From the IMG/VR virus record IMGVR_UViG_2778261267_000001: 40,147 nucleotides of DNA; one strand, written 5' to 3'. The notes below the pieces were generated by a model, which saw nothing but the letters and a program-made list of their open reading frames with translations, was not told the DNA's origin and ran no database searches. Origin of the DNA: a virus. Lineage: Duplodnaviria > Heunggongvirae > Uroviricota > Caudoviricetes. Made by a program: the position numbers and the translations under genes. The first letter of the stretch is position 1, and every line of letters begins with the position of its first letter. Shown here one piece after another: positions 6,421 through 39,616 of this stretch.

Positions 6421-6435
6421 TAGCGGAGATTAATC

Positions 6436-7251: not shown

Positions 7252-8033
7252 ACAACGTTTTTACCGCAATACAAAACCGTGACGGAGAAGCCCTTTCTCG
7301 CATGTCAGGTTATGAGCATCAGTACACCAACAATGACAACGTAGTGAACATGTCAGCAGAGAGGCTTGTTGATGCCCTTTTCAAACAGTTGAAACAACTG
7401 TTTCCGGCGGCAGTGGTAACCAACCTGAAGACGCCAGAGCAGGAAGTTGCTGCAAAACAGCAGTGGATTGCTGCGTTTGCTGAAGGAGGGATCCGAACCC
7501 GTGAACAGGTTTCTGCTGGTATGCGCCACGCCCGCGCCAGTGAATCTCCGTTCTGGCCGTCGCCAGGGCAATTTATCAAGTGGTGCAAAGACAGCAAGAT
7601 GGTTCTTGGCGTCACCATTGACGATGTGATGGCGGAGTTTCACCGGTACAGCAAGGAAAAAAGTTTATATCCTGGCGGTCCCGAAAGATTCCCGTGGCGA
7701 CATCCGGTTATGTACTGGGTCGTATGTGATACACGCCGTGCAATGTATCAGCGCCAGCTTAGCGAGATTGAGGTTGAGAAACACGCGCGCAGGCTGCTCG
7801 ATGATTGGGCGAAAAAGGTGGCTTCCGGACAGCAGATACCCGATCCGGTGATCAGCATACAGGCAAAGCCAGAACCCATGAGTACGCCTCCGGACACAGG
7901 GAGAGACGTTTACCACCCGCCAGGGCGAAGTTTCGGGTGCATGCCTAACGCCGCCACCCTGGGGGGAATAACACCGGCGCAGTGGCTGATGGAGGAATAC
8001 AGGCGGGGAAAGGCGGCAGGATTTATCAAGTAA
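7233..8033 (+). CDS. Replication protein P-like helicase loader
   Basis: Clear resemblance to lambda P as I recall it (e.g. AGMRHARASESPFWPSPGQFIKWC versus lambda GMRVARRQNRPFLPSPGQFVAWC). Start may instead be the GTG at 7248 overlapping the O-like stop. Confidence 0.85.
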   Translation: MGGFLVNNVFTAIQNRDGEALSRMSGYEHQYTNNDNVVNMSAERLVDALFKQLKQLFPAAVVTNLKTPEQEVAAKQQWIAAFAEGGIRTREQVSAGMRHARASESPFWPSPGQFIKWCKDSKMVLGVTIDDVMAEFHRYSKEKSLYPGGPERFPWRHPVMYWVVCDTRRAMYQRQLSEIEVEKHARRLLDDWAKKVASGQQIPDPVISIQAKPEPMSTPPDTGRDVYHPPGRSFGCMPNAATLGGITPAQWLMEEYRRGKAAGFIK

Positions 8034-8038
8034 TACCA

Positions 8039-8058
8039 GCGCGATAGCGCATTTTTTT
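8039..8058 (+). terminator. Weak terminator-like hairpin after the P-like gene
   Basis: GCGC-GATA-GCGC stem-loop followed by seven T residues; the stem is only 4 bp, so strength is uncertain. Confidence 0.35.
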
Positions 8059-8070
8059 ACGCCTACATGA

Positions 8071-8147
8071 TTACCTTGCGGGTAATAAAATGTTCTAATT
8101 TCTATTGATTTCATGTCTTATGTGGTTTTTAATTACCTCAGAGGTAA
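8071..8147 (+). promoter_or_regulatory. Regulated internal promoter region: two perfect TTACC-N5-GGTAA palindromes flanking a TATGTGGTT element
   Basis: TTACCTTGCGGGTAA at 8071-8085, TATGTGGTT at 8119-8127, and TTACCTCAGAGGTAA at 8133-8147 (a perfect 15-bp palindrome overlapping the RBS of the 8151 gene). Confidence 0.6.
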
Positions 8148-8150
8148 ATC

Positions 8151-8495
8151 ATGAGAAAACAGATACAGGCTCTTGGTCGACTCAAAACAGGCCAGATGAA
8201 CAAAACAGAATCTGCGTATTGCCAGCACCTTGAGCTGCGTAAACGTGCAGGAGAAATCGTCTGGTATCGATTTGAGGGTATCAAGCTTCGGTTAGCTGAC
8301 AACACGTTCTATACGCCCGATTTTGCTGTGATGCTCGCCACCGGCGAGATGGAACTGCACGAAGTGAAAGGTTTCTGGACCGACGACGCCAGGGTGAAAA
8401 CCAAAGTCGCCGCAGATCAGTATCCGTTCCGAATCATTGGGGTAACGGTTAAACCAAAGAAAGCAGGTGGTGGCTGGAACATCGAAGAGTTCTGA
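8151..8495 (+). CDS. DUF1064-like phage protein (putative PD-(D/E)XK-type nuclease / resolvase-like)
   Basis: 114-aa ORF with a D...ELHEVKG segment (D-x(n)-E-x-K) typical of small phage nuclease-fold proteins. Confidence 0.5.
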   Translation: MRKQIQALGRLKTGQMNKTESAYCQHLELRKRAGEIVWYRFEGIKLRLADNTFYTPDFAVMLATGEMELHEVKGFWTDDARVKTKVAADQYPFRIIGVTVKPKKAGGGWNIEEF

Positions 8496-8556
8496 ATCGA
8501 CGATCTTTTTAGTTATCAATGTAATCAATAAGTTATGTGGATAAGCGAGGGTAAAG

Positions 8557-9201
8557 ATGGAAATTAATATCAAAGGATTAGTTGCCGCCGGGCATGAGAT
8601 GGCTTCGGAACTGAAAGCTGAATGTGGTGCCGTTGATATGCGTAGTGTGGCAAAGCTGCTCAGCGATTTGGCAACGCAACTGGAAGTGCAACTGGCGCGT
8701 GCTAATGCGCTGGCCGAAGACCAGCAGAAAGCGATTGAGTCAATTAAGCAGGCTGATTCGGCCGTTAAGTTGGCGCACGAGAAGTTTTCAGCGCTGGCGG
8801 CGGAGAATGAGGCGTTGAAGTCGAACCTGATTTACTGGGGCGGCGAAGATTCAGGGCCTGTCAGAAGCCCGCTTGATTACGCCCATGAAGCCGGGCTGGA
8901 ATCTGGAGAGGAGTTTGAGATGCAAGTGGCAGCCAGAATGCCGAACCTGACTTATCGCGTTGTGTCCAGTTCCCGGTTCAAAACAGAAATAGAACTGATT
9001 GGCGGATTATTGCCGGAAACCCCAGCCACCGATGCTTTCCTGGCTGAAGTGCGGGCGCAGGCGTTTAATGACCTTTGCTCGGCGTTCGTTAAACACGCGA
9101 ATTTCGCGGGAATGGATGATGGTGAGCTAGTGAGGCTTAAATATGCGACGGACGCCCTGCTGCATTGTGCGGAACAGCTTCGCAAAGGAGGCAACCAGTG
9201 A
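8557..9201 (+). CDS. Hypothetical coiled-coil phage protein (214 aa)
   Basis: ORF with RBS (GAGGG) and a heptad-rich, alanine/glutamate-rich N-terminal half. Confidence 0.55.
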   Translation: MEINIKGLVAAGHEMASELKAECGAVDMRSVAKLLSDLATQLEVQLARANALAEDQQKAIESIKQADSAVKLAHEKFSALAAENEALKSNLIYWGGEDSGPVRSPLDYAHEAGLESGEEFEMQVAARMPNLTYRVVSSSRFKTEIELIGGLLPETPATDAFLAEVRAQAFNDLCSAFVKHANFAGMDDGELVRLKYATDALLHCAEQLRKGGNQ

Positions 9202-9743
9202 GTGTAACGGTTGAAAAGATTGATGTGTTGTCATTCGTTATAACCGGTGCAGAGAGACTAGATCCGATTCGAGTGATGATTGAAAACTACGAACCTGGTA
9301 AGGGAAGAATCACCATCACCTGCTACGGAAAAGCGTGGACTGCGGCTTGGTTTGCTATGGGCGGTGATGATGTGCAGACGTTCATTAAGCGAGTCAGCAA
9401 CGACTATCTAATCGACAATTTCGACCCTCAACTGCTAAGCACGGTCGACGATGACAACGATGCAAATCTGCTTTTCGTGAAGTCAGAAATCATAAAGTTA
9501 CGAAGAGAGAGAGAAATCGACGCCGTACTGGCTCGCGAAATGTGGGACGAGGCGGAAAACGCCGATGACGTAAAAGAAAGCTGCTGCTGTTTCGGCGTCG
9601 GTAACAAACTACTGAATCTCTTTGGTGATGATCCGTGGTGTGCCAACTGGCCAACGATACCAAACCCGAAATACCAGTATCTGGAACGCGTACTTAATGC
9701 AGTGAGAGACGGCCTTAAGCAAATAGAGAAGGTGGAACCATGA
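9198..9743 (+). CDS. Hypothetical phage protein (181 aa from the GTG start)
   Basis: AAAGGAGG RBS at 9185-9192 precedes the GTG at 9198, which overlaps the upstream stop; the track's longer start at 9165 is rejected. Confidence 0.55.
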   Translation: MSVTVEKIDVLSFVITGAERLDPIRVMIENYEPGKGRITITCYGKAWTAAWFAMGGDDVQTFIKRVSNDYLIDNFDPQLLSTVDDDNDANLLFVKSEIIKLRREREIDAVLAREMWDEAENADDVKESCCCFGVGNKLLNLFGDDPWCANWPTIPNPKYQYLERVLNAVRDGLKQIEKVEP

Positions 9744-10039
9744 CTGTATGTCTTATTGATAAACGTCGACGTGGGCAACAAATACCATCTGTTGAAATTC
9801 CGAATCACACATGGTTTTGCGTACTTGATATCGATGGTATGGATACGTTGATCGACACTCGTCATTACTGCGATACCGCAACAGCTACTCCTGCAAAAGC
9901 AAAGAAAATGGCTGCTCTGATAGAAAACTGGACTCCACCTGATGGTTGGTGCAATGGGAATGATCGAGATTGGCACGAAAAAATGAAGGGCTACATCTGC
10001 GATTTCTTACGTAAATGCAACGGATTCAGGGTGATGTGA
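9740..10039 (+). CDS. Hypothetical phage protein (99 aa)
   Basis: ORF with 4-nt start/stop overlap with the upstream gene; no motif recognised. Confidence 0.5.
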   Translation: MTVCLIDKRRRGQQIPSVEIPNHTWFCVLDIDGMDTLIDTRHYCDTATATPAKAKKMAALIENWTPPDGWCNGNDRDWHEKMKGYICDFLRKCNGFRVM

Positions 10040-13359: not shown

Positions 13360-13956
13360 ATGATGCCTGCTGAACCTAAAACCTATAAACGCAAATCAAC
13401 GCAATTTAAGCCACTAACAGCAATGCAGGAGGCTTATTGCCAGTCATACATCAAAACGCCTGAAAACCAGACTCAGGCAGCGATTAACGCAGGATTCTCC
13501 CCAAATACAGCGGCAGTTAAAGCCAGTGTCATGATGCGCGATGAACGCATTCAAAAACGGATTGCCGAGTTGATGGAGGAGCGCAACAAACGAATGCGCG
13601 TCAGTGCTGATTACGTTCTCATGCGCCTGGTGGAGATCGACCAGATGGACGTGATCGACATCCTCAACGACGATGGGAGCCTTAAACCAATCCGTGAGTG
13701 GCCGAAAATCTGGCGCACTACGCTTAGCGGCTTTGATCTGTCATCGACCATCATGAACATGAACGAGGATTCGATAGAGACAATCCTCAAAAAAATTAAA
13801 TGGCCTGACAAGGTGAAGAACCTTGAGCTGATTGGTAAGCATGTTGATGTCAACGCGTTCAAAGAACGCCTGGATGTTAATGTGAATGTGACAATTGCTG
13901 ATCGCATAGCGGCAGCCAGGAAGAGACTGAAAGAACGTCAGGATGGCAATCAGTGA
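13360..13956 (+). CDS. Terminase small subunit
   Basis: 198 aa from the MMPAEPK start (RBS GGTGG); helix-rich small protein immediately upstream of and overlapping the large terminase. Confidence 0.7.
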   Translation: MMPAEPKTYKRKSTQFKPLTAMQEAYCQSYIKTPENQTQAAINAGFSPNTAAVKASVMMRDERIQKRIAELMEERNKRMRVSADYVLMRLVEIDQMDVIDILNDDGSLKPIREWPKIWRTTLSGFDLSSTIMNMNEDSIETILKKIKWPDKVKNLELIGKHVDVNAFKERLDVNVNVTIADRIAAARKRLKERQDGNQ

Positions 13957-15428
13957 CAGATACAGCGTTATCTCCTGAAGAGCAGTTGATCGAGGATATT
14001 GCAGGGTTCACTCACGATCCGCTTGGCTATGCCCTCTATGCGTTCCCGTGGGGGGAAGAGGGGACTGAACTGGCACATGCTACCGGCCCACGTCAGTGGC
14101 AGGCCGATGCGTTCCGAGAGATACGTGATCACCTGCAGAATCCAGAGACGCGCTATCAGCCGCTTATGCTGGCACGCGCTTCTGGTCACGGTATTGGTAA
14201 ATCCGCATTCATCTCAATGCTGATCAACTGGGGCATGTCCACTTGTGAGGATTGTAAGGTCGTGGTGACCGCCAACACCGACAACCAGCTACGAACGAAG
14301 ACTTGGCCGGAAATTATCAAGTGGTCGAACCTTGCTATCACGAAAGACTGGTTTACCTGTACCGCTACCGCGATGTACAGCAATGATCCTGGACACGACA
14401 AGCGGTGGCGAGCTGACGCAATCCCCTGGTCTGAGCACAACACTGAGGCATTCGCCGGACTACACAACGAGCGCAAACGCATCATCGTGGTATTCGATGA
14501 AGCGTCGAACATTGCGGATCTGGTGTGGGAGGTAGCAGAGGGTGCGCTGACGGACGAAGACACCGAAATCATCTGGGTGGCGTTCGGGAACCCGACGCGT
14601 AATACCGGACGTTTCCGCGAATGTTTCCGCAAATATAAACACCGCTGGAAAACTGCGCAGATTGACAGCCGGACGGTGGAAGGCACTAACAAACAGCAGT
14701 TGCAGAAATGGGTTGATGACTACGGGGAAGACAGCGACTTCGTTAAAATCCGTGTGCGTGGCATATTCCCTGATGCATCTGAATTGCAGTTTATCCCTAC
14801 CGGTCTTACTGACGAGGCAATGAAACGGGTGGTAACCGCTGCGCAGGTTGCACATGCTCCGGTGATAATCGGCGTTGACCCGGCATACTCCGGCGTTGAT
14901 GACGCTGTGATATACCTGCGGCAGGGGCTGCACAGTAAGGTGCTATGGACTGGTAACAAGACCACCGACGATCTGATTATGGCGAAGCGTATCGCTGACT
15001 TTGAAGACCAGTATCAGGCTGACGCAGTGTTCATCGACTTTGGTTACGGTACCGGTCTGAAGTCAATCGGTGACGGCTGGGGTCGTACATGGCAACTTGT
15101 TCCGTTCGGCGGTGCGTCTACTGACCCGCAGATGCTCAATAAGCGCGGGGAGATGTTCAATGCATGCAAGACATGGCTGAGGCTGGGCGGCATGCTGGAT
15201 GACCAGGAAACAGCGGACGACCTGTCGGCGGCAGAGTACAAAGTTCGAGTGGACGGTAAAATCGTTATCGAACCGAAGGAAGATATCAAGGAGCGGCTTG
15301 GGCGTTCGCCGGGTAAAGGCGATGCGCTACTGCTGACGTTTGCGTTCCCTGTGTCTAAGCGTCTGCGAATTCCCGGGCAGCAGAACCAGCAAGGCAAGGC
15401 CATCACAGATTACGATCCCTATGCTTAA
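13953..15428 (+). CDS. Terminase large subunit
   Basis: 491-aa ORF with a Walker A-like ATPase motif (ARASGHGIGKS) and a C-terminal nuclease-type region; position after terS. Confidence 0.88.
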   Translation: MTDTALSPEEQLIEDIAGFTHDPLGYALYAFPWGEEGTELAHATGPRQWQADAFREIRDHLQNPETRYQPLMLARASGHGIGKSAFISMLINWGMSTCEDCKVVVTANTDNQLRTKTWPEIIKWSNLAITKDWFTCTATAMYSNDPGHDKRWRADAIPWSEHNTEAFAGLHNERKRIIVVFDEASNIADLVWEVAEGALTDEDTEIIWVAFGNPTRNTGRFRECFRKYKHRWKTAQIDSRTVEGTNKQQLQKWVDDYGEDSDFVKIRVRGIFPDASELQFIPTGLTDEAMKRVVTAAQVAHAPVIIGVDPAYSGVDDAVIYLRQGLHSKVLWTGNKTTDDLIMAKRIADFEDQYQADAVFIDFGYGTGLKSIGDGWGRTWQLVPFGGASTDPQMLNKRGEMFNACKTWLRLGGMLDDQETADDLSAAEYKVRVDGKIVIEPKEDIKERLGRSPGKGDALLLTFAFPVSKRLRIPGQQNQQGKAITDYDPYA

Positions 15429-16093: not shown

Positions 16094-16170
16094 TGGCGTG
16101 GCATGCAGGATTCGAACCTGCGACCAACCGCTTAGAAGGCGGTTGCTCTGTCCAACTGAGCTAATGCCAC
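16094..16170 (-). tRNA. tRNA-Arg (anticodon UCU, decodes AGA)
   Basis: 77-nt cloverleaf folded by hand: acceptor GTGGCAT/ATGCCAC, D-stem GCTC/GAGC, anticodon stem ACCGC/GCGGT with loop CTTCTAA (anticodon TCT), T-arm GCAGG-TTCGAAT-CCTGC, discriminator G, encoded CCA. Confidence 0.85.
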
Positions 16171-16817: not shown

Positions 16818-18497
16818 ATGGCGGAAACAACTAAAGAGCGATTGAACAAACAGTTCGCACAACTTGAAAGCGAGCGTCAGTCGTTCGAGCCGCACTGGCG
16901 CGAGTTGAGTGATTACATCAACCCGCGTGGTTCCCGCTTTCTGACTTCTGAGGTCAACCGTAACGATCGACGCAATACGCGCATTATTGATTCGACCGGG
17001 ACTATGGCGGCGCGTACTCTCGCCAGCGGCATGATGTCTGGTATCACAAGCCCCGCCCGTCCGTGGTTTCGCCTGGCTACGCCAGATCCTGAAATGATGG
17101 ATTATGGCCCTGTTAAGTTGTGGCTTGAGGCGGTGCAGAACCGCATGAACGATATGTTCAATAAGTCGAATCTCTACCAGTCTCTTCCGCAGTTATACGG
17201 AAGCCTCGGCACATACAGCACTGGTGCAATGGCGGTGCTGGAGGATGACGAGGACATCATTCGCACAATGCCATTCCCGATAGGCAGTTACTACCTGGCT
17301 AACTCACCTCGTGGCAGTGTGGACACCTGTTTTCGCAAGTTCTCTATGACTGTTCGTCAGCTTGTTCAGGAATTCGGACTAAATAACGTCAGCGAATCCG
17401 TAAAAAGCATGTGGGAAAGCGGCACCTACGAGAAGTGGATTGAAGTGATGCATTCGGTTTACCCGAACATTGACCGCGATACATCGAAGCTGGATAGCAA
17501 GAACAAGCCATTCAAATCGGTTTATTACGAGGTTGGTGGCGATAACGACAAGTTGTTGCGTGAGTCCGGATTCGATGAGTTTCCAATTATGGCTCCGCGC
17601 TGGGAAGTTAATGGCGAAGATGTTTATGGATCATCATGCCCGGGTATGCTGGCGCTTGGACCTGTTAAGGCATTGCAGCTTCTTCAGAAGCGCAAGTCGC
17701 AGTTGATTGATAAAGCCACCAATCCGCCGATGGTTGCTCCGACTTCCCTCAAGAATCAGCGCGCCTCCCTTCTTCCTGGCGACATCACGTATATCGATCA
17801 GATTACTGGTCAGGATGGTTTCAGGCCTGCTTATCTGGTTAACCCCAGTACAGCAGATTTGGTGGCAGACATTCAGGACACTCGTCAAATCATTAACAGC
17901 GCCTACTTTGTCGATCTGTTCATGATGTTGCAGAACATCAATACCCGCTCGATGCCTGTTGAAGCGGTGATCGAAATGAAAGAAGAAAAACTTCTGATGT
18001 TGGGGCCGGTTCTGGAGCGTCTGAACGACGAATGTCTTAATCCTCTCATTGACCGCGCTTTCTCGATGATGGTGCGTAAAAACATGCTGCCGCCACCGCC
18101 TGACGCGATGGAAGGTATGCCCCTGAAGGTCGAATACATTTCCGTCATGGCTCAGGCGCAGAAGTCTATCGGCCTGTCCAGTCTGGCATCCACGGTCAAC
18201 TTCATTGGTCAACTTGCGCAAGCGAAACCAGAAGCTCTCGACAAACTCAACGTTGATCAGGCGATCGATGCATTCGCTGATATGTCCGGAGTGTCTCCAA
18301 CCGTCATTGTTCCGCAGGAACAGGTTGAGCAGGCTCGCCAGCAACGGGCACAGCAACAACAGCAGCAACAAATGATGGCGATGGGGATGGCGGCGGCACA
18401 GGGTGCCAAGACGCTAAGCGAAGCTAAAACTTCGGATCCGAGTGTTTTGTCAGCTATGGCGAATGCAGTTAGTGGTCAGGGTGGGCAATCACAATGA
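16818..18497 (+). CDS. Portal / head-to-tail connector protein (podovirus T7 gp8-like)
   Basis: 559-aa ORF; size and the Q/M/A-rich C-terminal tail (QQRAQQQQQQQMMAMGMAAAQGA) recall the T7 gp8 C-terminus; position after the terminases. Confidence 0.8.
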   Translation: MAETTKERLNKQFAQLESERQSFEPHWRELSDYINPRGSRFLTSEVNRNDRRNTRIIDSTGTMAARTLASGMMSGITSPARPWFRLATPDPEMMDYGPVKLWLEAVQNRMNDMFNKSNLYQSLPQLYGSLGTYSTGAMAVLEDDEDIIRTMPFPIGSYYLANSPRGSVDTCFRKFSMTVRQLVQEFGLNNVSESVKSMWESGTYEKWIEVMHSVYPNIDRDTSKLDSKNKPFKSVYYEVGGDNDKLLRESGFDEFPIMAPRWEVNGEDVYGSSCPGMLALGPVKALQLLQKRKSQLIDKATNPPMVAPTSLKNQRASLLPGDITYIDQITGQDGFRPAYLVNPSTADLVADIQDTRQIINSAYFVDLFMMLQNINTRSMPVEAVIEMKEEKLLMLGPVLERLNDECLNPLIDRAFSMMVRKNMLPPPPDAMEGMPLKVEYISVMAQAQKSIGLSSLASTVNFIGQLAQAKPEALDKLNVDQAIDAFADMSGVSPTVIVPQEQVEQARQQRAQQQQQQQMMAMGMAAAQGAKTLSEAKTSDPSVLSAMANAVSGQGGQSQ

Positions 18498-25238: not shown

Positions 25239-25783
25239 TGTGCGATCCGGTTATTGCTGGTGGCGCAATGCTCGCCATGAGTGGCATTCAGGCATACACC
25301 CAGTACCAACAGGGAAAGTATGCCTCGAAGGTTGCAGAAGCGAACGCAGATATAGCCACAGCTCAGGCAAATGATGCAATAAACAGAGGTAACGCTGAAG
25401 CTGAGCAACGGCGCAGAGAGACCCGACAGCGGCTTGGTACACAGGCGGCGACAATGGGGGCGACCGGCGCCGATTTATCTACCGGTAACGCGCTGGATAT
25501 ATTTGGCGACACTGCCCAGTTTGGCGCTCTTGATTCGCTGACGACGGTGAATAACGCGCAACGCGAGGCTTACGGTTATCAGGTTCAGGCTGCCAACTAT
25601 AAAGCAGAAGCCAGTTCAGCCCGTAAACAGGGGAATGTGGGAGCAGCAACAACATTGCTCACTGCGCCTCTGAAGGCATACGGTGCGTACCAGATGTTTG
25701 GTGGGACGTGGAGTCCGTTTACTCAAAGCACCCCTGCGCCAATCGGGGCAGCAGCAGGAACCAGATTACCCGGAGGATTATAA
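25238..25783 (+). CDS. Internal virion protein (T7 gp14 position) - putative
   Basis: 181-aa Ala/Gln-rich protein with a hydrophobic N-terminus; position. Confidence 0.45.
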   Translation: MCDPVIAGGAMLAMSGIQAYTQYQQGKYASKVAEANADIATAQANDAINRGNAEAEQRRRETRQRLGTQAATMGATGADLSTGNALDIFGDTAQFGALDSLTTVNNAQREAYGYQVQAANYKAEASSARKQGNVGAATTLLTAPLKAYGAYQMFGGTWSPFTQSTPAPIGAAAGTRLPGGL

Positions 25784-28296
25784 TGCCAGTCGTACCAACA
25801 GTATCCGGACGTCAGGTTGAGAGTCGTGGAGTTCAGTCAGCAGGCTTGCAGACGTTTTCTCAGCCAGGTATTAGTGATGCTTTTGTTCGGGCAGGGACAG
25901 AGGCAATTGATGTTTTGGGGCAGGCAAAACAGCGTGCCAATATCGCTCTGGCTCAGGAGGCATCTCTTAACCTCAGTCAGATAAGCAGTGATCTGCTGAA
26001 TAACCCTGAAACAGGTTTGCTTAACCTGAAAGGGAAAAATGCTATTGGAAAAGGTCAGGAGTATACGCAGCAGTTTGATGCTCAGGTCGAACAACTGGCT
26101 ATGTCGCTGCCGGATGAACAGGCCCGTAATGCTTTCATGCAGCAGGCGCAGCAGCAGCGCATTCAGTTCACTACGCAGGCCGGGCGGCACGAGATAGGGC
26201 AAATAAATGCCTACGAAGAAGGCCAGTTTCAGGCTACGCTGCTGAACAATGGTAAAAATGCCGCAGCATTGTATGGCGACAACGCCGCATACGTATTGGC
26301 TAATAAGCAAACTTTCCAGCAAATTGAGGATTACGGCATTGCGCATGGCTGGAGCGACGAGCAAATCCAGGCCAAGAAAATCGAGTTTAAAGAGAAGGTT
26401 GCTGATGCAGCATTGTCCCAGTGGTCGGCAAACAATGCGACCGCATTCATCCAAAGTAATGGCGAGTTAAGTGATACTGCTGCTGGAGCTCGCCGTGCTG
26501 TAGCAGATAGTGACTCTTCCGAGCGTGCCCGTGGCATACGCAACAATAACCCAGGAAATCTCGAATACAGCAAAACCAATCCGTGGGTAGGCCAGACCGG
26601 TGATGATGGTCGATTTGCTAAATTCGAAACACCTGAACACGGGATTCGTGCATTAGGGCGGAACCTGATGTCGTATCAGAGGCAGGGTATTGATACCGTC
26701 AGCGAGATAATTAATCGCTGGGCACCGCCTACTGATAAAAATGACACTATGTCGTATATCAAAGCAGTGTGCGAACAACTTGGCGTTTCTGCTGATGAGC
26801 CTCTCGATGCATCTAATCCTGATACCCTGAAGGCGCTTTGTGCAGCCATTATCCATCATGAGAACGGTAGCCAGCCATACAGTGATCAGCAGTTAACTGC
26901 TGGTGTCAGTGCAGCACTTGGTTTATCAACAATTCCAACCAACACCAAACGCTATACCGGTAATGCAGCATTCGATGCGGCATCTCCTGAGGCGCAGGCA
27001 AGTTTTATGCGACAGGCGGATCAACTGCGTCGGCAGCAGCAGGCTGAATATAAAACGATGATTGACAGCCAGGTTCGCGATGCGACAGCTGCGTATATGC
27101 GTGGCGTTGAATTTCCTAACCCACCTGGTGAGGCTGATTTTATTGCAGCTTATGGAGTCAGAGAAGGAAACCTGCGATATACCGAGTTCAGAAATACGCA
27201 AATCGCCGGACAGTATATAGGCTCTTTCCGCAACATGCCGACAAGCAGCATTACAGCATATGTTGAGCAATTACGCCCGGATACTGGTGAGACAGGGGAG
27301 GGTTATGCGGCACGAGCCGCTCTTTATGACAACGTTGTGTCGACTGCAAGTCAGGTGATAAAGCAGCGACAGGCTGATCCTGTACAGTTCTCTCTTGCCG
27401 CCGGACAGGCAAAGCCTATCGACATGAGCAATAAGGATAACTTTGGACAGAGCGTTGCCTTGCGTGCTGCTCAGGTCAGTGACCTTGCTAAGTCATATGG
27501 CACTCCACTGACGTTCTTTTCCAAAGACGAGGCCAATCAGATCGGTGTTTTCTTTCGTGATGCGCCCGTTTCCCAACAGGCAGCATATCTCGATACCATC
27601 AGGCAGAGCACTGGTGGTGGGCAGGTGTATATGTCAGCACTACAGCAGATCAGTGCCAACGCTCCATCTGCTGCCGTTGCCGGGATACTGATGGATAAGC
27701 CAGGTGGTATTTTGGCAGAAAAAAACTGGTTTAATCCGGATGTTTCCGTGTCTCCTGAAACCGCTGCGCAGACAATTCTTGCTGGCGCGGCGGCTCGTAA
27801 AGGTACTGATGACGCGAAAGGTATTCCGATGCCTAAAGATGCTGATCTTCGCCTTGAGTTTTCTGACATGGTGAAGGATGCATTTGCTGGTGATGCTCAG
27901 GGGGCATCAATGGCATACGAGATCGCAAAGGACTATTACGCTGGTGTGATGGCGAAAAAAGGCGTGGTATCAGGCGAAATTGACAATGATATCTGGAAAC
28001 AGGCTGTTAACGTAGCTACAGGTGGCGTGCATGACTATAACGGAATGGGGAATGTTCTTTTGCCGTGGGGAATGTCTGCAGAGCAATTCGATAAGCAGGT
28101 TAATCAGGCTTGGAATGAACAAGTTGTTGGCACAGGGATAAAAACACCGCCTGGTCAGTATGGTTTGCAAAGTTACGGCGATAGTCAGTACCTGGTGAAA
28201 CTTGGTACTGGTTATCTGCTAAAAGATGATGGTTCTCCCGTTGTTCTTGATCTGACACAGAAGCGTCAGAGATTCTCCGGAGATATTCCGCAATGA
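25783..28296 (+). CDS. Internal virion/ejection protein (T7 gp15 position) with an embedded globular domain
   Basis: 837 aa from the ATG at 25783, which overlaps the upstream stop; the track's start at 25708 is an extension. Contains a conserved-looking block around RGIRNNNPGNLEYSKTNPWVGQ...IINRWAPP. Confidence 0.55.
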   Translation: MPVVPTVSGRQVESRGVQSAGLQTFSQPGISDAFVRAGTEAIDVLGQAKQRANIALAQEASLNLSQISSDLLNNPETGLLNLKGKNAIGKGQEYTQQFDAQVEQLAMSLPDEQARNAFMQQAQQQRIQFTTQAGRHEIGQINAYEEGQFQATLLNNGKNAAALYGDNAAYVLANKQTFQQIEDYGIAHGWSDEQIQAKKIEFKEKVADAALSQWSANNATAFIQSNGELSDTAAGARRAVADSDSSERARGIRNNNPGNLEYSKTNPWVGQTGDDGRFAKFETPEHGIRALGRNLMSYQRQGIDTVSEIINRWAPPTDKNDTMSYIKAVCEQLGVSADEPLDASNPDTLKALCAAIIHHENGSQPYSDQQLTAGVSAALGLSTIPTNTKRYTGNAAFDAASPEAQASFMRQADQLRRQQQAEYKTMIDSQVRDATAAYMRGVEFPNPPGEADFIAAYGVREGNLRYTEFRNTQIAGQYIGSFRNMPTSSITAYVEQLRPDTGETGEGYAARAALYDNVVSTASQVIKQRQADPVQFSLAAGQAKPIDMSNKDNFGQSVALRAAQVSDLAKSYGTPLTFFSKDEANQIGVFFRDAPVSQQAAYLDTIRQSTGGGQVYMSALQQISANAPSAAVAGILMDKPGGILAEKNWFNPDVSVSPETAAQTILAGAAARKGTDDAKGIPMPKDADLRLEFSDMVKDAFAGDAQGASMAYEIAKDYYAGVMAKKGVVSGEIDNDIWKQAVNVATGGVHDYNGMGNVLLPWGMSAEQFDKQVNQAWNEQVVGTGIKTPPGQYGLQSYGDSQYLVKLGTGYLLKDDGSPVVLDLTQKRQRFSGDIPQ

Positions 28297-32584: not shown

Positions 32585-32758
32585 GTGTTTTTAATTATTT
32601 TGAGTGTGATAATTTCTGGTGGATTGTTATTTATTGACCGCTACAAATATTTTCTTAACCCTCAGACTCAAGCTATTTGCTGGTTCATCTTTGTTGTGCA
32701 GGGAGTAGTTCTTGTTGCAAGCCTTATTGAGGGGAGGCCTCTTATTTTTACTGGGTAA
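32585..32758 (+). CDS. Small hydrophobic membrane protein (57 aa, GTG start)
   Basis: ORF below the track cut-off, translated by hand (VFLIILSVIISGGLLFIDRYKYFLNPQTQAICWFIFVVQGVVLVASLIEGRPLIFTG). Two predicted TM helices; AGGAAG 4 nt upstream of the GTG; AT-rich. Confidence 0.35.
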   Translation: MFLIILSVIISGGLLFIDRYKYFLNPQTQAICWFIFVVQGVVLVASLIEGRPLIFTG

Positions 32759-32770
32759 ATAGGTGACTAC

Positions 32771-33067
32771 ATGCAAGCTATAGGATTCATTGTTTATATC
32801 GTCGTTGGTCTTTTTCAGTTGGCAGCAATTATGGCTGGGCTTGAATCATGGTGGGGATTGCACTGGATAATTGCAGCCCCCATCGCTTTCATCGTGAGCT
32901 ATATTCCATTTGTTGGAGCGATTGTTGGTATGGTTGGCGCTGTGGATGTATGGCGGTGGGAGTGGTGGCAGGCTGGCCTTCTCTTCTTTGGTGGGATCAT
33001 CTTTGCTATTGTCTGCGGTGGAATGTCATCATTTTTCGAATGGCTATCATTCAGAAAAGGAACGTGA
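32771..33067 (+). CDS. Small integral membrane protein (98 aa)
   Basis: ORF with AGGTG RBS; almost entirely hydrophobic with Trp-rich loops (three or more TM helices); followed by a terminator. Confidence 0.55.
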   Translation: MQAIGFIVYIVVGLFQLAAIMAGLESWWGLHWIIAAPIAFIVSYIPFVGAIVGMVGAVDVWRWEWWQAGLLFFGGIIFAIVCGGMSSFFEWLSFRKGT

Positions 33068-33075
33068 CATGTCAC

Positions 33076-33100
33076 AGGCCGCTTTCGCGGCCTTTTCTTT
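33076..33100 (+). terminator. Intrinsic terminator after the membrane-protein genes
   Basis: AGGCCGC-TTTC-GCGGCCT hairpin followed by TTTCTTT; preceded by a 12-bp palindrome GTGACATGTCAC (33064-33075). Confidence 0.65.
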
Positions 33101-33374
33101 ATGTAGTTTGTTTTCGTAATTGTTCGGCACAATAGTCGAGATGTGTTTGCAGATCCTGCATAGACATCTGTGAGCTGGTGACGTAGTTAATCAGTGCAGT
33201 CAGTTCGGCAAGTGGGCCATCGACATTAAATCCATCCTTATCGAGATCCCGGAGTAATTTCATCAAGTGCGATCCATCCACCAGTGACCTGACGCCTCCC
33301 GGCGTGTGAATCCTTTCGGTAAATCCGTCTTCCAGTGGATAGTGATACTGCTGCATCTTATCTTCTCCATGCAA
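33099..33374 (-). CDS. Hypothetical protein (91 aa), divergent from the tailspike gene
   Basis: ORF convergent with the membrane-protein genes and sharing a 177-bp divergent control region with the tailspike gene; no motif recognised. Confidence 0.45.
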   Translation of the reverse strand: MHGEDKMQQYHYPLEDGFTERIHTPGGVRSLVDGSHLMKLLRDLDKDGFNVDGPLAELTALINYVTSSQMSMQDLQTHLDYCAEQLRKQTT

Positions 33375-33432
33375 TAACTGTATATTTATACAGTATCAAA
33401 TAATTTGTTTGCTATCCAGCACGTTTTGCGAA

Positions 33433-33498
33433 TTACCTGAAAGGTAATATCTATTCGTGTTTATGGGTTATCTATCCATATGTGGTTTTTAAGGTAAT
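33433..33498. promoter_or_regulatory. Tailspike / divergent-gene control region: TTACC-N5-GGTAA palindrome plus TATGTGGTT-N5-GGTAAT element
   Basis: TTACCTGAAAGGTAA at 33433-33447; TATGTGGTT at 33479-33487; GGTAAT at 33493-33498. Confidence 0.55.
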
Positions 33499-33551
33499 AG
33501 AATAACCGGATATGCGGCGCAACGGGTGCTGCGACTATCTGGAGATTTAAC

Positions 33552-35750
33552 ATGACGGTCTCAACCGAAGTTGACCACAACGAATACACAGGTAACGGCG
33601 TTACGACATCGTTTCCGTATACCTTCCGCATTTTCAAAAAATCCGACCTGGTTGTTCAGGTGGTTGACCTTGACGAAAATATCGCTGTGCTGGCTCTTGA
33701 TACTGATTATACAGTTACCGGGGCGGGAGGATATAACGGTGGTAATGTAATTCTGTCGAAGGCGCTGGCTAACGGTTATAAGATTTCTATATCACGAGAG
33801 CTACCGGTTACTCAGGAAACTGATCTGCGCAATCAGGGCAAGTTCTTTGCAGAAGTGCATGAGGATGCTTTTGATAAACTGACTATGCTGATTCAGCAGG
33901 CTATTAGTTTGTTGCGTCTTTCTCTGCGTAAACCGTCTTTTGTCGCAAATTACTATGATGCTCTGAACAATTACATTCGCAATCTTCGTGACCCGTCACG
34001 TCCACAGGATGCAGCAACAAAGAATTATGTTGATAGTCTTGCTGAAGAAAATTTAAGACGAACTTTGCGAACCCCTGAACGGATACCAGAACTCCCTGGA
34101 GTTGAACAGCGTAAGAATAAGATTATTGCAATGGATGATTCTGGAAATCCGATAATGGTTTTGCCTGAATCTGGTTCAGCATCAGATGTTCTGATTGAAC
34201 TAGCTAAGCCAAGCGGCCTTGGTATGATAGGGGCATCTTCTGGAAATAGTGCGCAGGCTGATATTGATTTATTGTCTTATGCTTACGGTATAAGATTAAG
34301 CACTTACCTTGATCGCGAAGACCCTTTGAGTGATGCTCTGATTGATTCACGATCAAAAAATCTACCATTAGTCATTGACTGCGATGCGACGTACAAAACA
34401 TTTCTGGTTTACAGTAACGACAGGATAATCGGTTGCGGAGATCATACTTTAACAAAAGCAGGGAATGACAAGTCATCAATACCATCAGCACAGCAACCTG
34501 AACGCCCACCTGGAACGATGACAGATTTCAGCGCGATTGATGCCGGTATTATTATCGTTCACCCTGAAAATGGAGCAGCAACTAATATCGAAATCACAGG
34601 GTTTAACATAAAAAGCAACTCTCACTCCGAATATGGAATATATCATCCTGTTTTATCATTTTCACGTATATCTAATATCAAAATTACTGGCTTTAAAAAG
34701 GGGATGAGAGCAAAAGACTCTTATGGAAACCAGTTTAGTAAAATATTCTCATTGTATTATTACTCTCCCCAAGATGTTTATAGCGACAACTATTGTTATG
34801 ATTTTTCTGATGGAGATTACGCCTCAGGAACAAGTAACACATTCAGTAATGTTACCTGTACTAACTATAAGAGACCATTCTTCTTTCAGAACCATAATTA
34901 CTTCACGATGACAAACTGTGGTGGTGAAGGGGTTAATACGCATGAGGCAGTAACAAACACAAACTATCCTCTTGTTTTTGAGTTTGTAAATGTTGTAAGT
35001 GCTGTATTGAACACTCCTTATACTGAAAATCTTTATGGAGGATTTTTAAGAGCAACATCAACGCCTGAAGGAACTGCGCAAGGTCCATCAACTATAGTTA
35101 TAAATGGACCGCAGGCAATTACAGGCATATACGGAACAGACACTGAAGTTGGAGCAAAGTTATTTGATGTAAGCGGCTCAGTAAACGTAGCTGTTAATGG
35201 TGGGGTGTTGACAGGTGCATCATTTGGCAAGTTCCTTAAGTTTGGCGGGGCTTCAGACGAAGCATGTCTGCTGATAACGGGCATGGATATGAAGTATGTG
35301 CTGTCTCAAATACGTAGTGATTTTGGATATAACGGAATTAATTCAGTTAAAGGACTTAGGCCAATTCAAATTTTGAGGAATGGAATTGGCTCTGCAACTG
35401 GTAGCGGGATTGTTAACTGGAAAAGTGCATCTATAGATGATTATTTTATGAATGGCGGTAATTATACAAAAACAGCGCTTGGTGGTTTTTATAAGATAGA
35501 AATTACGCTGCCAATAGGATCATCTGCATCAGGTGGAGAAGTTCAACTCTTGCTGTCAGATACGGATACAGACAATGGAGTTATAATTTCACAATGCTAT
35601 GTTCCTCCAGTGTCAAGCGGTAAGTTTACTGCCTCCATAAGCTACGAAGGTAGATTGCCTGGAGGAAAGTACCTTTATGTAAAGGCTAATAATGCCAGCT
35701 GGTCATCTGCATACGACATTGATTCAGTGTTTAATGTAATCCTGAAGTAA
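33552..35750 (+). CDS. Tailspike / receptor-binding protein with a low-GC C-terminal (likely O-antigen-directed) domain
   Basis: 732-aa ORF with strong RBS. N-terminal ~170 aa at normal GC, remainder markedly AT-rich; C-terminal region rich in N/G/S/T, consistent with a beta-helix receptor-binding fold. Confidence 0.8.
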   Translation: MTVSTEVDHNEYTGNGVTTSFPYTFRIFKKSDLVVQVVDLDENIAVLALDTDYTVTGAGGYNGGNVILSKALANGYKISISRELPVTQETDLRNQGKFFAEVHEDAFDKLTMLIQQAISLLRLSLRKPSFVANYYDALNNYIRNLRDPSRPQDAATKNYVDSLAEENLRRTLRTPERIPELPGVEQRKNKIIAMDDSGNPIMVLPESGSASDVLIELAKPSGLGMIGASSGNSAQADIDLLSYAYGIRLSTYLDREDPLSDALIDSRSKNLPLVIDCDATYKTFLVYSNDRIIGCGDHTLTKAGNDKSSIPSAQQPERPPGTMTDFSAIDAGIIIVHPENGAATNIEITGFNIKSNSHSEYGIYHPVLSFSRISNIKITGFKKGMRAKDSYGNQFSKIFSLYYYSPQDVYSDNYCYDFSDGDYASGTSNTFSNVTCTNYKRPFFFQNHNYFTMTNCGGEGVNTHEAVTNTNYPLVFEFVNVVSAVLNTPYTENLYGGFLRATSTPEGTAQGPSTIVINGPQAITGIYGTDTEVGAKLFDVSGSVNVAVNGGVLTGASFGKFLKFGGASDEACLLITGMDMKYVLSQIRSDFGYNGINSVKGLRPIQILRNGIGSATGSGIVNWKSASIDDYFMNGGNYTKTALGGFYKIEITLPIGSSASGGEVQLLLSDTDTDNGVIISQCYVPPVSSGKFTASISYEGRLPGGKYLYVKANNASWSSAYDIDSVFNVILK

Positions 35751-35777
35751 ACTAAGGCCCAGAACATGGGCCTTTCG

Positions 35778-36836
35778 TTACTTTATAAAGCGGCGACCTA
35801 TTGAAATAAAATGCTTTTCAATTAGTTCGTGCACTGCCACTGATATTATTAAGGTGATTGATAAAACTATAAACAACCTAGAAAACCCTGATGTGTTTGT
35901 GAAAATAAATGTATCGTACTTATAAATGCACTCAAGTATAATTACATGCACTATATATAATGAATAAGATATATCCCCGAGGTACTCAAGAGTGTTGCAT
36001 TTTTTTATTCCATTATTTTTTTCATACATAACTAAAATAAATACTATTAGAGCGCTTAGCCCCCCCCACTTTAATGGGCCGTGACCATAGAATAAATTAA
36101 TCTGGGATGCAATTAACGAAAATAACAGAAGCAATAGCCAAGGTGTAATTTTATTAAACAATATGGACTTGAAATCTACATGTTTGTATATTGCATATAT
36201 AATAATCCCATATACAAAATCAAGAAACATTGGTGAATAGAAAAGAGCGAATGCATTGCTTGGCGTTACGTTAACTTGTTTTGTATAAGCATCTGTAGAA
36301 ATCGAATCATTGAAATAGTAAGAGGCCACAATGAATATTACAACGATAGATAGCAAGCTAATGCATGTTCTGTATTTTTGATTGAAGGCAATAGCCAACC
36401 CAAAAATAGCATAGAATGCGATTTCATAAGTTATCGTCCATGCAGTATCAAGTAAATTGAACCCATAAAAAGGACTTCCTGCAGAATAATCGCTATGTAT
36501 TGGTATTAATGATTTTATGTATAATGAGTAACTGGATTCTGATTTAATGGTTAAGAAATAAACTGTCACGCATATTATCAGTAAAGGATAAATCCTGAAA
36601 AAACGACGAATAAAAAAATTAAATACGGCGTGCTTTTCAAGCCTTTCAGTTGAAAGGCATATTATAAATCCGCTAATTATAAAAAAAAGGTCAACACCGA
36701 AAGCCCCGTAATTGAAAAGCAAAGAACCTAGATCCTTCTGTGAGTAAACTTCATTCAAATACCACTTCGTATGATAAAGAACCACAAAAATAGAAGCAAA
36801 TCCCCTCATGTATTGTATTGAATGAACTTTGTTCAA
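35778..36836 (-). CDS. Acyltransferase family 3 membrane protein (probable O-antigen acetyltransferase, lysogenic conversion)
   Basis: 352-aa very AT-rich ORF with about ten hydrophobic segments and an N-terminal MRGFASIFVVLYH segment typical of acyltransferase_3 enzymes. Confidence 0.8.
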   Translation of the reverse strand: MNKVHSIQYMRGFASIFVVLYHTKWYLNEVYSQKDLGSLLFNYGAFGVDLFFIISGFIICLSTERLEKHAVFNFFIRRFFRIYPLLIICVTVYFLTIKSESSYSLYIKSLIPIHSDYSAGSPFYGFNLLDTAWTITYEIAFYAIFGLAIAFNQKYRTCISLLSIVVIFIVASYYFNDSISTDAYTKQVNVTPSNAFALFYSPMFLDFVYGIIIYAIYKHVDFKSILFNKITPWLLLLLFSLIASQINLFYGHGPLKWGGLSALIVFILVMYEKNNGIKKCNTLEYLGDISYSLYIVHVIILECIYKYDTFIFTNTSGFSRLFIVLSITLIISVAVHELIEKHFISIGRRFIK

Positions 36837-37046
36837 TTAAATAACCCTCTGCTTAATAATATTTTTACATAACTGTAAGTTATTTTGATTCTCATAAGAA
36901 CCAATGGTTTTTAGAAAACCACCACAAGCAAATCGAAGTTTATCACCTTTGGGGTAATTGCGGTAGAATTGGTATGACGTTTTTTGAACCGCATATGGTT
37001 TATTGTGTATGATGAACTCATCAATAAGTTGGTTCTTCATGCACAT
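36837..37046 (-). CDS. Hypothetical small protein (69 aa) upstream of the acyltransferase - doubtful
   Basis: AT-rich ORF abutting the acyltransferase start; a near-operator palindrome (36943-36957) lies inside it, so this may be promoter DNA rather than a gene. Confidence 0.3.
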   Translation of the reverse strand: MCMKNQLIDEFIIHNKPYAVQKTSYQFYRNYPKGDKLRFACGGFLKTIGSYENQNNLQLCKNIIKQRVI

Positions 37047-37061: not shown

Positions 37062-37466
37062 ATGTCAGTTCAGCTAACCAGTGAGTCTTTAAATCAGTGG
37101 CTTAGTGCTGGTTCTCTTGCTGCGGTGATAGCAGGGGTTCCTCCAGAGGTGGCTTTGGGGGCTTTGGCTGGGGCGGTAATTTTTGTTACCTCGGCCATCG
37201 AGTATCCCATTCATCGCCGGGTTCTCCTGTCTATGCTCAGCTTCCTCTGCGGCCTTCTCTTTTACAAACCTACAGCGTCCATCCTTATCGGTGTAGCCAG
37301 CCTGATCCCTACCATCACGCAGGACTCTTTCGAGAAAGGGATTGTTTTCTCTGCTGGTGCATTCGTGTCAGCAATCGTTGCAGTTCGAATTGGCATCTGG
37401 CTCTATCACCGTTCCGATAATCCACGCGAGTTAATTCCGGGGAGAAAAGACGATGGTAACGCATGA
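37062..37466 (+). CDS. Holin-like membrane protein
   Basis: 134 aa from the ATG at 37062; three or more hydrophobic helices; first gene of the lysis cassette, upstream of the endolysin. Confidence 0.5.
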   Translation: MSVQLTSESLNQWLSAGSLAAVIAGVPPEVALGALAGAVIFVTSAIEYPIHRRVLLSMLSFLCGLLFYKPTASILIGVASLIPTITQDSFEKGIVFSAGAFVSAIVAVRIGIWLYHRSDNPRELIPGRKDDGNA

Positions 37467-37761
37467 GCTTTTTTTGCTTATCACCAATGCAGTTATTTGT
37501 ACTGGCATAGCAATTCGTGTTGTCACATTCCGGCGTAACGGATCTCAACACCGAAGATGGGGAGGCTGGCTTGCTTATTTTCTGATTGTTGCTGCGGCCA
37601 GTATTCCAGTTCGTGCTGTCTATGCAATCTGGCTACGCACGCCAATGGCTGTGGATTTATCTGAGGTCATTATCAACGCTGTCATGTTTGCTGCGGTTGT
37701 TAAAACGCGCGGTAACGTCGTTCAGTTTTTCAAAATAACGAGGTCTAAACATGGAGATTAA
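37453..37761 (+). CDS. Second small membrane protein of the lysis cassette (holin/antiholin candidate)
   Basis: 102-aa ORF with three hydrophobic segments, overlapping both neighbours. Confidence 0.5.
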
Positions 37762-38380
37762 ACAATTCCAGCGAGCTGCTGGTATTAGCGAGGCGCTGGC
37801 CGCACGCTGGTTCTCGCATATAACTTCTGCGATGAAAGAGTTTGGTATCAGCAAACCAGAAGATCAGGCAATGTTTATTGCTCAGGTCGGGCATGAGTCT
37901 GGAGGCTTCACCCGGCTGCAGGAGAACTTCAACTACAGCGTGACCGGGCTGGCGGGATTCGTCCGTTCCGGGCGCCTCACTCAGGGCCAGGCCAACGCGC
38001 TGGGCCGTCGTGCTGGTGAGCCATCGTTACCGCTGGAGCGCCAGCGTGCGATCGCCAATCTGGTGTATAGCAAGCGCATGGGGAACAACGGGCCGACTGA
38101 CGGCTGGTTTTACCGTGGGCGCGGGCTTATCCAGATTACCGGTTTGAATAACTATCGTGACTGCGGAAACGGTCTAAAAGTGGACCTGCTGGAGAATCCT
38201 GAGCTGTTGACGCAGGACGAATACGCGGCTCGTAGCGCGGCGTGGTTCTTCTCCAGCAAAGGCTGCATGAAGTATCCCGGAGATATTGCACGTGTAACTC
38301 TGATTATCAATGGTGGCCGGAACGGCATCGACGACCGGCGCGCGCGGTACGTTACTGCCAGTAAGGTGCTGGCCGTATGA
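37751..38380 (+). CDS. Endolysin, glycoside hydrolase family 19 (chitinase-like lysozyme)
   Basis: 209-aa ORF; the segment [12 protein letters not shown]...[11 protein letters not shown] matches the GH19 catalytic core as used by phage endolysins. Confidence 0.8.
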
Positions 38381-38859
38381 TCTGGGCATTCGTAAAAGCA
38401 TACCGTAATCAGTTGATTATCATGGCGGTGCTTGCTGTTCTGGTCATATCAGGAGTTGTTGCCTGGAATGTGCACGGCAGTCGTCAGTACGACGCTGGGT
38501 ATGCACAGGCGAAAGAAGACCGCAAAACCGAAGATGAGAGAGTTCGTCAGCACTACGAACAGGAGAAATCGATCAATGAACGTGAAGCGCAGCAGAGGAT
38601 CGACCAGGCGCACAATGATGCTCTTGATGCTGCCGCTCGCGCTGGCCGGTTGCAGCAACAGCTCGTTGCCATCCGTGAGCAGCTCAGGCACTATAACGCC
38701 ATTGTCGGCGCTGGGTCGTCAGCCGCAGACACCGGAGTTTTGCTTGCCGACGTGTTCAGCAAATCTCTCGAGAGAAATAGACAACTGGCAGAGTATGCTG
38801 ACCGGGCATCCGAAGCCGGAAGAGTCTGCGAAAAACAGTATGACACCCTGACCAGATAG
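38377..38859 (+). CDS. Rz-like i-spanin
   Basis: 160-aa ORF with an N-terminal TM helix and a coiled-coil periplasmic domain; overlaps the endolysin stop; contains an embedded +1-frame lipoprotein ORF. Confidence 0.7.
38576..38851 (+). CDS. Rz1-like o-spanin (lipoprotein) embedded within the Rz gene
   Basis: Alternative-frame ORF wholly inside Rz, with AGGAG RBS 10 nt upstream of the ATG at 38576, a lipobox (LALAGCS) and a Pro/Ser-rich mature part. Confidence 0.6.
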   Translation: MNVKRSRGSTRRTMMLLMLPLALAGCSNSSLPSVSSSGTITPLSALGRQPQTPEFCLPTCSANLSREIDNWQSMLTGHPKPEESAKNSMTP

Positions 38860-39076: not shown

Positions 39077-39616
39077 TTAATTAAACCAGCTGTCCGATTT
39101 GTTCTCTTCTGCTTTGCCCACGCTTTTCATCAGATCGCGACCGCCTTCAGTCATATTTCTGTTGGCGTCAGCTTCAGATTGCACCACATCGGTTTGCGCA
39201 GCTTTGTGCTTCAGTTCCTGATCGATAAATTCGTTTTCGCGCTTAACGCGGGCTTCTTCTTTTGCCAGCGCCAGTTTTTGTTTCTGAATCTCTAAGCTGC
39301 GTAGCTCATCTTCATAACTTTGATCGCGTTTTTTGTCCGCAGTGGCTTCGGCGTCCAGTTTATCCTGACGAGCTTTCTTATTTGCCGCTGCCGTTGCCGC
39401 TCTTTTGTTAGCGGCGGCCTGGGCATTTGCGCGACGTTGCTTCTCTTGCTGGATTTCCCTGTTGCGCTCCGCGACCCATTCGTCATGCTGCCTTTGCTCT
39501 TCATTTTTACCTTGCTGTTCCGCTTCTGCGACAGCAGAGAGTTGATCCTGCAATGATGAGGCGATAGCCGGATAGCTTAAGGAGGCTAAGATGGCGCAAA
39601 GAAAAACTTTCTTCAT
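39077..39616 (-). CDS. Exported coiled-coil protein (signal peptide; Gln/Lys/Ala-rich)
   Basis: 179-aa ORF with a signal peptide (MKKVFLCAILASLSYPAIA) and a highly charged helical body; may be host flank or prophage cargo. Confidence 0.55.
   Translation of the reverse strand: MKKVFLCAILASLSYPAIASSLQDQLSAVAEAEQQGKNEEQRQHDEWVAERNREIQQEKQRRANAQAAANKRAATAAANKKARQDKLDAEATADKKRDQSYEDELRSLEIQKQKLALAKEEARVKRENEFIDQELKHKAAQTDVVQSEADANRNMTEGGRDLMKSVGKAEENKSDSWFN

Follow-up and report, generated by a model that had tools for sequence, protein, structure and literature searches.

In phage T7, the N-terminal transglycosylase domain of the internal virion protein gp16 is conditionally needed for genome entry (PMC8954989), while in phages K1E and K1-5 the lysin activity is found on the gp15-like protein and not on gp16 (PMC8954989); by analogy, a lysin carried by a gp15-like ejection protein would be a known theme. 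Here we consider a window of 40,147 nucleotides (the whole stretch of DNA analysed, from IMG/VR virus record IMGVR_UViG_2778261267_000001, class Caudoviricetes), and in particular a conserved block inside an ejection protein of 837 amino acids (aa) which a preliminary description of the window had put forward as a candidate cell-wall-acting enzyme. By sequence and by predicted structure, this block is a domain of the type found in ORF39 of Hafnia phage Enc34 (family PHA02564). We consider it probable, at roughly 85%, that it works as an active peptidoglycan glycosidase of that type inside a protein occupying the gp15 position, and that it acts when the DNA enters the cell.

The catalytic domain of Enc34 ORF39 (PDB entry 7q47) has been placed in the provisional CDD family PHA02564, and the protein is muralytic on permeabilised Escherichia coli, Pseudomonas aeruginosa and Hafnia alvei (PMC8943055). 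Its fold, solved in 2021-22, has been described as all-alpha and related, by permutation, to the lysozyme alpha-lobe that GH73 and GH23 have in common. Its authors described a distant structural likeness to GH23 enzymes, in which the glutamate is superimposed, and proposed by structural superposition that Glu131 is the catalytic acid, assisted by Trp79 and Tyr95 (PMC8943055). M4Lys of Salmonella phage BSPM4 degrades purified peptidoglycan in vitro (PMC7143992). Furthermore, Enc34-like folds have been reported in PM2 P5 and other Vinavirales lysins (PMC9502842), in the virion protein GP11 of phage NO16 (PMC13552765) and in a type VI secretion effector (PMC13340143).

Comparison of the 837-aa protein with the PDB by phmmer returned two matching entries, both via the block alone, namely chain L of 9vvp ('Gp29', 1295 aa; E=3.7e-38, about 55% identity) and 7q47 ('Endolysin'; E=2.6e-17 over residues 249-367). 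A family-profile search of the PDB gave E=4.5e-60 and E=2.9e-39 for the same two entries, and tblastn with the domain matched the annotated endolysin in the Enc34 genome at E=4e-20. Moreover, the predicted domain can be superposed on 7q47, which is its sole significant fold match in the PDB. Scans of the whole protein against Pfam and NCBIfam gave no usable match, Pfam contributing nothing, SLT included, and it is because neither collection matches the block that the preliminary description could not place it. Its remark that the block fits neither lysozyme nor SLT motifs agrees with these scans and with hhalign, in which the domain-family profile produced no alignment to the SLT domain of T7 gp16 (probability 0.3%); whether judged by the SLT domain model or by a known SLT domain, the block is not a member of GH23/SLT. 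The accompanying idea of a different hydrolase fold holds in that the fold is not that of classical lysozymes or SLT enzymes, but not in the sense of a new one: the domain kind was already known, and no new fold or mechanism is revealed. A predicted non-enzymatic helical bundle had been named as the outcome that would speak against an enzyme; the block is indeed all-helical, but its helices are predicted to adopt the fold of an active enzyme (7q47), with the catalytic glutamate kept. A peptidoglycan-degrading type of domain within a podovirus ejection protein, as originally suggested, is in this way supported by matches in both sequence and modelled fold.

Conservation was evaluated in 24 full-length homologues, 21-55% identical overall, and in 61 domain homologues. 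Among the former, 23 columns are invariant: M1, P5 and a further 21 which all fall within R253-G380, in keeping with the 'invariant-looking' residues first noticed there. By these alignments, the block is the sole strongly conserved part of the 837-aa protein. R253, N254, N256, P257, G258, N259, W268, Y325 and E360 are invariant in the full-length set, so that six of the seven positions of the RNNNPGN motif never vary, N255 being kept in 23 of the 24 proteins, and each position of the motif is kept in at least 58 of the 61 domain homologues. HMMER alignment to 7q47, with numbering as in PMC8943055, brings W313, Y325 and E360 into the positions of the putative catalytic Trp79, Tyr95 and Glu131. 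The column of W313 is always aromatic (W in 55 and Y in 6 of the 61; W in 21 of the 24), Y325 is invariant in both sets (61/61 and 24/24), and E360 is a glutamate in all 24 full-length proteins and in 60 of the 61 domain homologues, the remaining one having a gap. The three peptides originally quoted from the block, RGIRNNNPGNLEYSKTNPWVGQ, FETPEHGIRALGRNLMSYQ and IINRWAPPTDKND, are all present in the translation of this open reading frame (ORF), and the span first given for it, 26520-26890 (residues 247-370), includes each of the putative catalytic residues W313, Y325 and E360, while the domain as folded continues a little further (residues 249-378). That the block is conserved beyond chance is confirmed by the PDB matches and by the 13,268 representatives of 50%-identity clusters which the domain matches at E<=1e-3 (6,951 at E<=1e-10).

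The full-length AlphaFold (AF2) model of the protein has a predicted local distance difference test score (pLDDT) of 82 and a predicted template modelling score of 0.51, and in this model the domain sits between two helical regions. A short beta-hairpin is predicted at residues 271-281. The flanks had been described as Ala/Gln-rich and of low complexity. Alanine (13-15%) and glutamine (8-13%) are indeed abundant in them, but with a Shannon entropy of 3.4-3.8 bits per 40 aa they are not low-complexity, and the model predicts them with confidence as long helices (pLDDT mostly 85-95). Neither the N-terminal nor the C-terminal region has a sequence match in the PDB, even by family profile. The protein has no hydrophobic, signal, signal-arrest-release (SAR) or transmembrane segment (maximum Kyte-Doolittle mean over 19 residues, 1.02). 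Other identities were considered and set aside: a transmembrane or SAR-type endolysin, as there is no hydrophobic segment; a tape-measure protein, suggested by a match to PHROG 2276 which spans the lysin domain only; kinship with phi6 P5, which gave no PDB match at E<=1; and AphA, whose match at E=0.062 is noise.

The window comes from an epsilon15/phiV10-like podovirus of the genus Uetakevirus, a temperate phage, with an integrase at the window start and an epsilon15-type major capsid protein and portal also encoded. At the DNA level, the 837-aa gene shares 99.0-99.3% identity with its counterparts in phiV10 and vB_EcoP_ZX5, against about 75% with epsilon15 gene 15, and PHROG 992 matches the protein full-length (E=0). 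GenBank already contains a 99% identical protein, and the Enc34 assignment is a refinement of annotation, not a discovery. The order of the genes (tail protein, 154-aa protein, gp14-like protein, 837-aa protein, 600-aa protein, 824-aa protein, tailspike) mirrors T7 genes 12 to 17, and between tail tube and fibre or spike the 837-aa gene occupies the place of gp15. The gene immediately upstream encodes a 181-aa protein matching Pfam T7_gp14 (E=2.5e-7, 31.2 bits against a cut-off of 27) and PHROG 418, which is labelled 'internal virion protein'. Translation of the 837-aa form begins at position 25783 with an ATG, which is preceded by a GGAGGA ribosome-binding site. This ATG shares bases with the TAA that ends the upstream gene (TAATG), and the TGA of the 837-aa gene does so with the downstream start codon (ATGA); the two overlaps imply translational coupling to both neighbours. 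Its homologues are annotated as 'virion protein', 'hypothetical structural protein', 'minor structural protein' and ejectosome proteins, and PMC12391199 mentions, by secondary citation, gp15 among the contents of the epsilon15 injection apparatus.

In the proposed course of events, the 837-aa protein would be packaged in the capsid alongside the remaining internal proteins, as suggested by the annotation of homologues, by its place in the operon and by what is known of epsilon15. After tailspike-mediated adsorption it would, by analogy with T7, follow the gp14-like outer-membrane protein out of the particle by way of the portal and the tail channel, and the domain would presumably fold or refold in the periplasm. 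There, E360 may act as general acid while W313 and Y325 position the glycan, leading to local cleavage of glycan strands, a chemistry extended from M4Lys and Enc34 on the strength of the shared residues. The bond cut would most likely be the beta-1,4 linkage from N-acetylglucosamine (GlcNAc) to N-acetylmuramic acid (MurNAc), GlcNAc-beta-1,4-MurNAc, as proposed for the Enc34 family. In turn, the wider murein mesh would allow the protein's own helical parts, together with the 600-aa and 824-aa proteins, to build a trans-envelope DNA conduit. The domain would be the functional counterpart of the N-terminal SLT domain of T7 gp16 and, likewise, would probably be required mainly where peptidoglycan is highly cross-linked.

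The strongest functional argument is the in-situ displacement of the T7 transglycosylase domain in K1F-like gp16. In CLB_P1 gp16 (1295 aa, essentially Gp29 of 9vvp), residues 125-1294 align with residues 152-1314 of T7 gp16, and the first 124 residues or so are an Enc34-type domain where T7 gp16 has its SLT domain. CLB_P1 gp16 (nucleotides 5956-9840 of the sequence compared) and T7 gp16 (nucleotides 3596-7552) display a clean swap of the N-terminal module and are otherwise collinear proteins. Entry 9vvp, for which no paper was found in the literature, comprises eight chains of a gp15 homologue and four of Gp29, the gp16 homologue, equal to the 8:4 core ratio of gp15 to gp16 quoted for T7. Alignment with T7 gp15/gp16 homologues had been recommended in the preliminary description: K1F-like gp16 carries the same domain, and the profile comparisons with T7 gp15 and with the gp16 SLT domain are negative. 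A Foldseek search of the full-length model against 350,542 chains gave as best non-lysin matches 7k5c_A (E=1.1e-3, probability 0.99) and 6yt5_A (E=1.5e-3, probability 0.98), at template modelling (TM) scores of just 0.16-0.19. Both entries are T7 ejectosome structures holding gp15, whose 747 aa fit A chains of about 650 residues, and this match of the model to the gp15 tunnel chains offers weak structural support.

Several points weigh against an active glycosidase at entry. The catalytic triad of the Enc34 family was derived by superposition, and the family papers examined contain no mutagenesis. The bond specificity of M4Lys is ambiguous, the data having been taken as glucosaminidase plus endopeptidase activity while a figure legend speaks of a muramidase (PMC7143992). 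With an E of about 1e-3 and such TM scores, the Foldseek match to gp15 is borderline; the full-length family profile is negative against T7 gp15, and the profile search of the PDB gave no gp15 chain. Finally, the location in the virion and the ejection are deduced from annotation, synteny and the proteomics and genetics of epsilon15.

The alternative which survives best retains the domain and its role at entry and assigns it the chemistry of a lytic transglycosylase, non-hydrolytic and producing 1,6-anhydro-MurNAc, instead of that of an N-acetylglucosaminidase. GenBank labels epsilon15 gp15 'putative lytic transglycosylase' from an HHpred match to SltB (4anr), a label borne by many homologues, and the distant GH23 likeness of Enc34, together with an active site built on a single glutamate, would suit either chemistry; as a statement of family the label is wrong, and we regard this alternative as unlikely. 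Labels are inconsistent throughout, near-identical proteins being called 'head protein', 'capsid and scaffold', 'structural protein P5', 'hypothetical protein' or 'lytic transglycosylase', because Pfam and NCBIfam have no model for the Enc34-type domain. Many K1F-like gp16 records also bear the label 'peptidoglycan transglycosylase' despite their Enc34-type N-terminus.

An extension of the proposed entry role, decidedly speculative, is that a lysin placed mid-chain in a gp15-like tunnel subunit, and not on a partner protein as in T7, may form a ring of active sites on the wall of the periplasmic tube, making a 'self-drilling' conduit, perhaps with the dual glucosaminidase/endopeptidase activity hinted at for M4Lys; if true, it would provide a single-polypeptide model coupling unfolding, refolding, murein cutting and tube assembly. 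Less credible still is a non-catalytic module, serving as a peptidoglycan-binding anchor of the trans-envelope tube or as a packing element of the capsid core. Such a role would be in line with the mid-chain place of the domain in a largely helical structural protein, with a muralytic activity which is putative, and with the transglycosylase domain of T7 gp16 being also structural, as the 'wings' of the tunnel (PMC8954989). It is made very improbable by the invariance of the putative catalytic glutamate and tyrosine and the always aromatic tryptophan column at such low overall identity, by the concentration of nearly all invariant columns in the domain, as expected from purifying selection on an active site, and by the stand-alone versions which serve as endolysins. 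That the protein is a second endolysin acting at the end of infection is scarcely tenable: the domain serves Chi-like phages as their true endolysin (Enc34, M4Lys, 'lysis protein A') and some PHROG families matching the 837-aa protein are labelled 'endolysin', but its gene lies in the virion/ejection operon, coupled to the T7_gp14-like gene and about 9.5 kb upstream of a lysis cassette (37453..38859) already provided with a GH19 endolysin between a holin (Phage_holin_3_7) and Rz (DUF2514), as well as with Rz1, it adjoins no holin or spanin gene of its own, its architecture resembles T7 gp15, and with this separate endolysin and no signal, SAR or transmembrane segment the block is therefore not the lysis enzyme of the phage.

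As regards distribution, tblastn detected the domain in 816 of 50,697 phage records (about 1.6%), with hosts including Salmonella, Escherichia, Pseudomonas and Vibrio. The labels found among these records comprise endolysin, lysis protein A, internal virion protein D, DNA ejectosome component, structural protein P5 and tail injection transglycosylase. Many of the cluster representatives are proteins of 600-1300 aa with the domain near residues 240-400, and others are stand-alone proteins of 140-280 aa. Two representatives have architectures unusual for the family: a metagenomic protein of 762 aa with four separate stretches matching the domain, possibly tandem lysin repeats, and a protein of 3773 aa carrying it at residues 496-633. 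In the literature, no paper was found which explicitly places epsilon15-like gp15 in the Enc34 family or links 'Enc34' with 'ejection protein'. The importance of the assignment is mainly one of annotation. It gives the epsilon15/phiV10 group a specific candidate for the breach of murein during DNA delivery. It also adds a further natural case of interchangeable lysin modules on podovirus ejection proteins: T7 gp16 carries SLT, K1F gp16 an Enc34-type domain, and here a gp15-like protein has an Enc34-type domain inside it. A word-indexed search with the N-terminal 240 aa for orthologues bearing another lysin returned only close relatives and gene fragments.

Table 1. Features of the 837-aa protein and of the surrounding genes, with positions in the window
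Feature	Residues	Position	Strand	Basis or remark
Tail protein, 823 aa		22303..24774		Precedes the internal virion protein genes
'Internal virion protein', 154 aa		24774..25238	+	PHROG 308; epsilon15 gp13 counterpart, GNAT-like
T7-gp14-like internal virion protein, 181 aa		25238..25783	+	Pfam PF24072 T7_gp14; PHROG 418
Ejection-protein gene, 837 aa		ORF 25708/25783..28296	+	Homologue of epsilon15 gp15 / phiV10 p18; T7 'gp15' position
Low-confidence N-terminus	1-43			pLDDT <50
N-terminal long-helix region, Ala/Gln-rich	39-226	25897..26460	+	AF2 model, composition
Predicted flexible linker	230-245	26470..26517	+	pLDDT <50
Enc34-ORF39 / PHA02564-type muralytic domain (by sequence and model)	249-378	26527..26916	+	
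RNNNPGN motif	R253-N259	26539..26559	+	N-terminal family signature
Putative substrate-positioning aromatic (RWAPP)	W313	26719..26721	+	Enc34 Trp79; alignment to 7q47; PMC8943055
Putative assisting tyrosine	Y325	26755..26757	+	Enc34 Tyr95; alignment to 7q47
Proposed catalytic acid (IIHHENG)	E360	26860..26862	+	Enc34 Glu131; alignment; PMC8943055
Predicted C-terminal helices and small beta domain	395-746 and 749-823	26965..28251	+	AF2 model
Epsilon15 gp16 homologue, 600 aa		28293..30095	+	Two hydrophobic segments; ATGA overlap with the 837-aa gene
Tailspike, 732 aa		33552..35750	+	Downstream of the 600-aa and 824-aa virion protein genes
GH19-type endolysin		37751..38380	+	Pfam Glyco_hydro_19, E=1.3e-8; phiV10 annotation agrees

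Among the neighbouring genes (Table 1), the 600-aa protein has no Pfam family; it holds Gly/Ala-rich, moderately hydrophobic segments at about residues 165-183 and 260-278 (Kyte-Doolittle 1.3-1.7), and on this composition it is a candidate inner-membrane-inserting component of the ejection apparatus. The 154-aa ORF has no Pfam match, and its epsilon15 counterpart, gp13, is annotated by HHpred as a GNAT acetyltransferase; if that label is true, an enzyme-like fold without known substrate would be packaged with the ejection proteins.

Elsewhere in the window, a tRNA-Arg with anticodon TCT (16094..16170, minus strand) lies between the large terminase (13953..15428) and portal (16818..18497) genes; at the equivalent place in phiV10, no tRNA is annotated. 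The tailspike is adjoined by an Acyl_transf_3 O-acetyltransferase-like gene (35778..36836, minus strand); the phiV10 tail fibre has 875 aa. When positions 32600-37000 were compared with the phage collection by megablast, matches were confined to the first 1000-1600 nucleotides or so and no record covered 80% or more; therefore the C-terminal, receptor-binding part of the tailspike and the Acyl_transf_3 gene are unrepresented in that collection. This lack of coverage points to a module for O-antigen specificity and serotype conversion that differs from that of phiV10. The lysis cassette is closely followed, on the other strand, by a 179-aa ORF (39077..39616, minus strand) with a strong match to Pfam DUF5384 (E=4e-62).

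Compared with Enc34 ORF39 and M4Lys, the domain described here is internal in an 837-aa virion protein devoid of transmembrane segments and presumably acts at entry, and the short hairpin is predicted where Enc34 has a long loop. The small virion proteins PM2 P5, its Vinavirales homologues and NO16 GP11 share with it the Enc34-like fold and the W/Y/E triad (PMC9502842, PMC13552765), and similarity to PM2 P5 is already mentioned in the phiV10 annotation; the PM2 P5 group, however, consists of small stand-alone proteins of membrane-containing tailless viruses and not of ejection-protein domains. As in K1F-like (Kayfunavirus) gp16, the 'internal virion protein D' of CLB_P1 and Gp29 of 9vvp, an Enc34-type domain is borne by a podovirus core or ejection protein, but there it is N-terminal on a protein of 1295 aa and here it is internal on the protein in the gp15 position, the remainders being unrelated in sequence. 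With the SLT (GH23) domain of T7 gp16 it would share the job of cutting murein as part of an ejection protein brought in by the virion, and its gene, like gene 16 of T7, comes after the gene for the tail tube and before that for the fibre or spike; it nevertheless belongs to another family, with no sequence or profile similarity, a permuted helix order and a different carrier protein. That carrier resembles T7 gp15 in following a gp14-like gene, in its size (837 against 747 aa), in being mostly helical and in its best, if borderline, non-lysin fold match, and differs from it in the lack of detectable sequence-profile similarity and in the possession of an enzymatic type of domain, which T7 gp15 does not have. 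Within this range of arrangements, gp35 of K1E and K1-5, a gp15-like protein with lysozyme activity, offers the parallel of a lysin borne, as proposed here, by a gp15-like protein.

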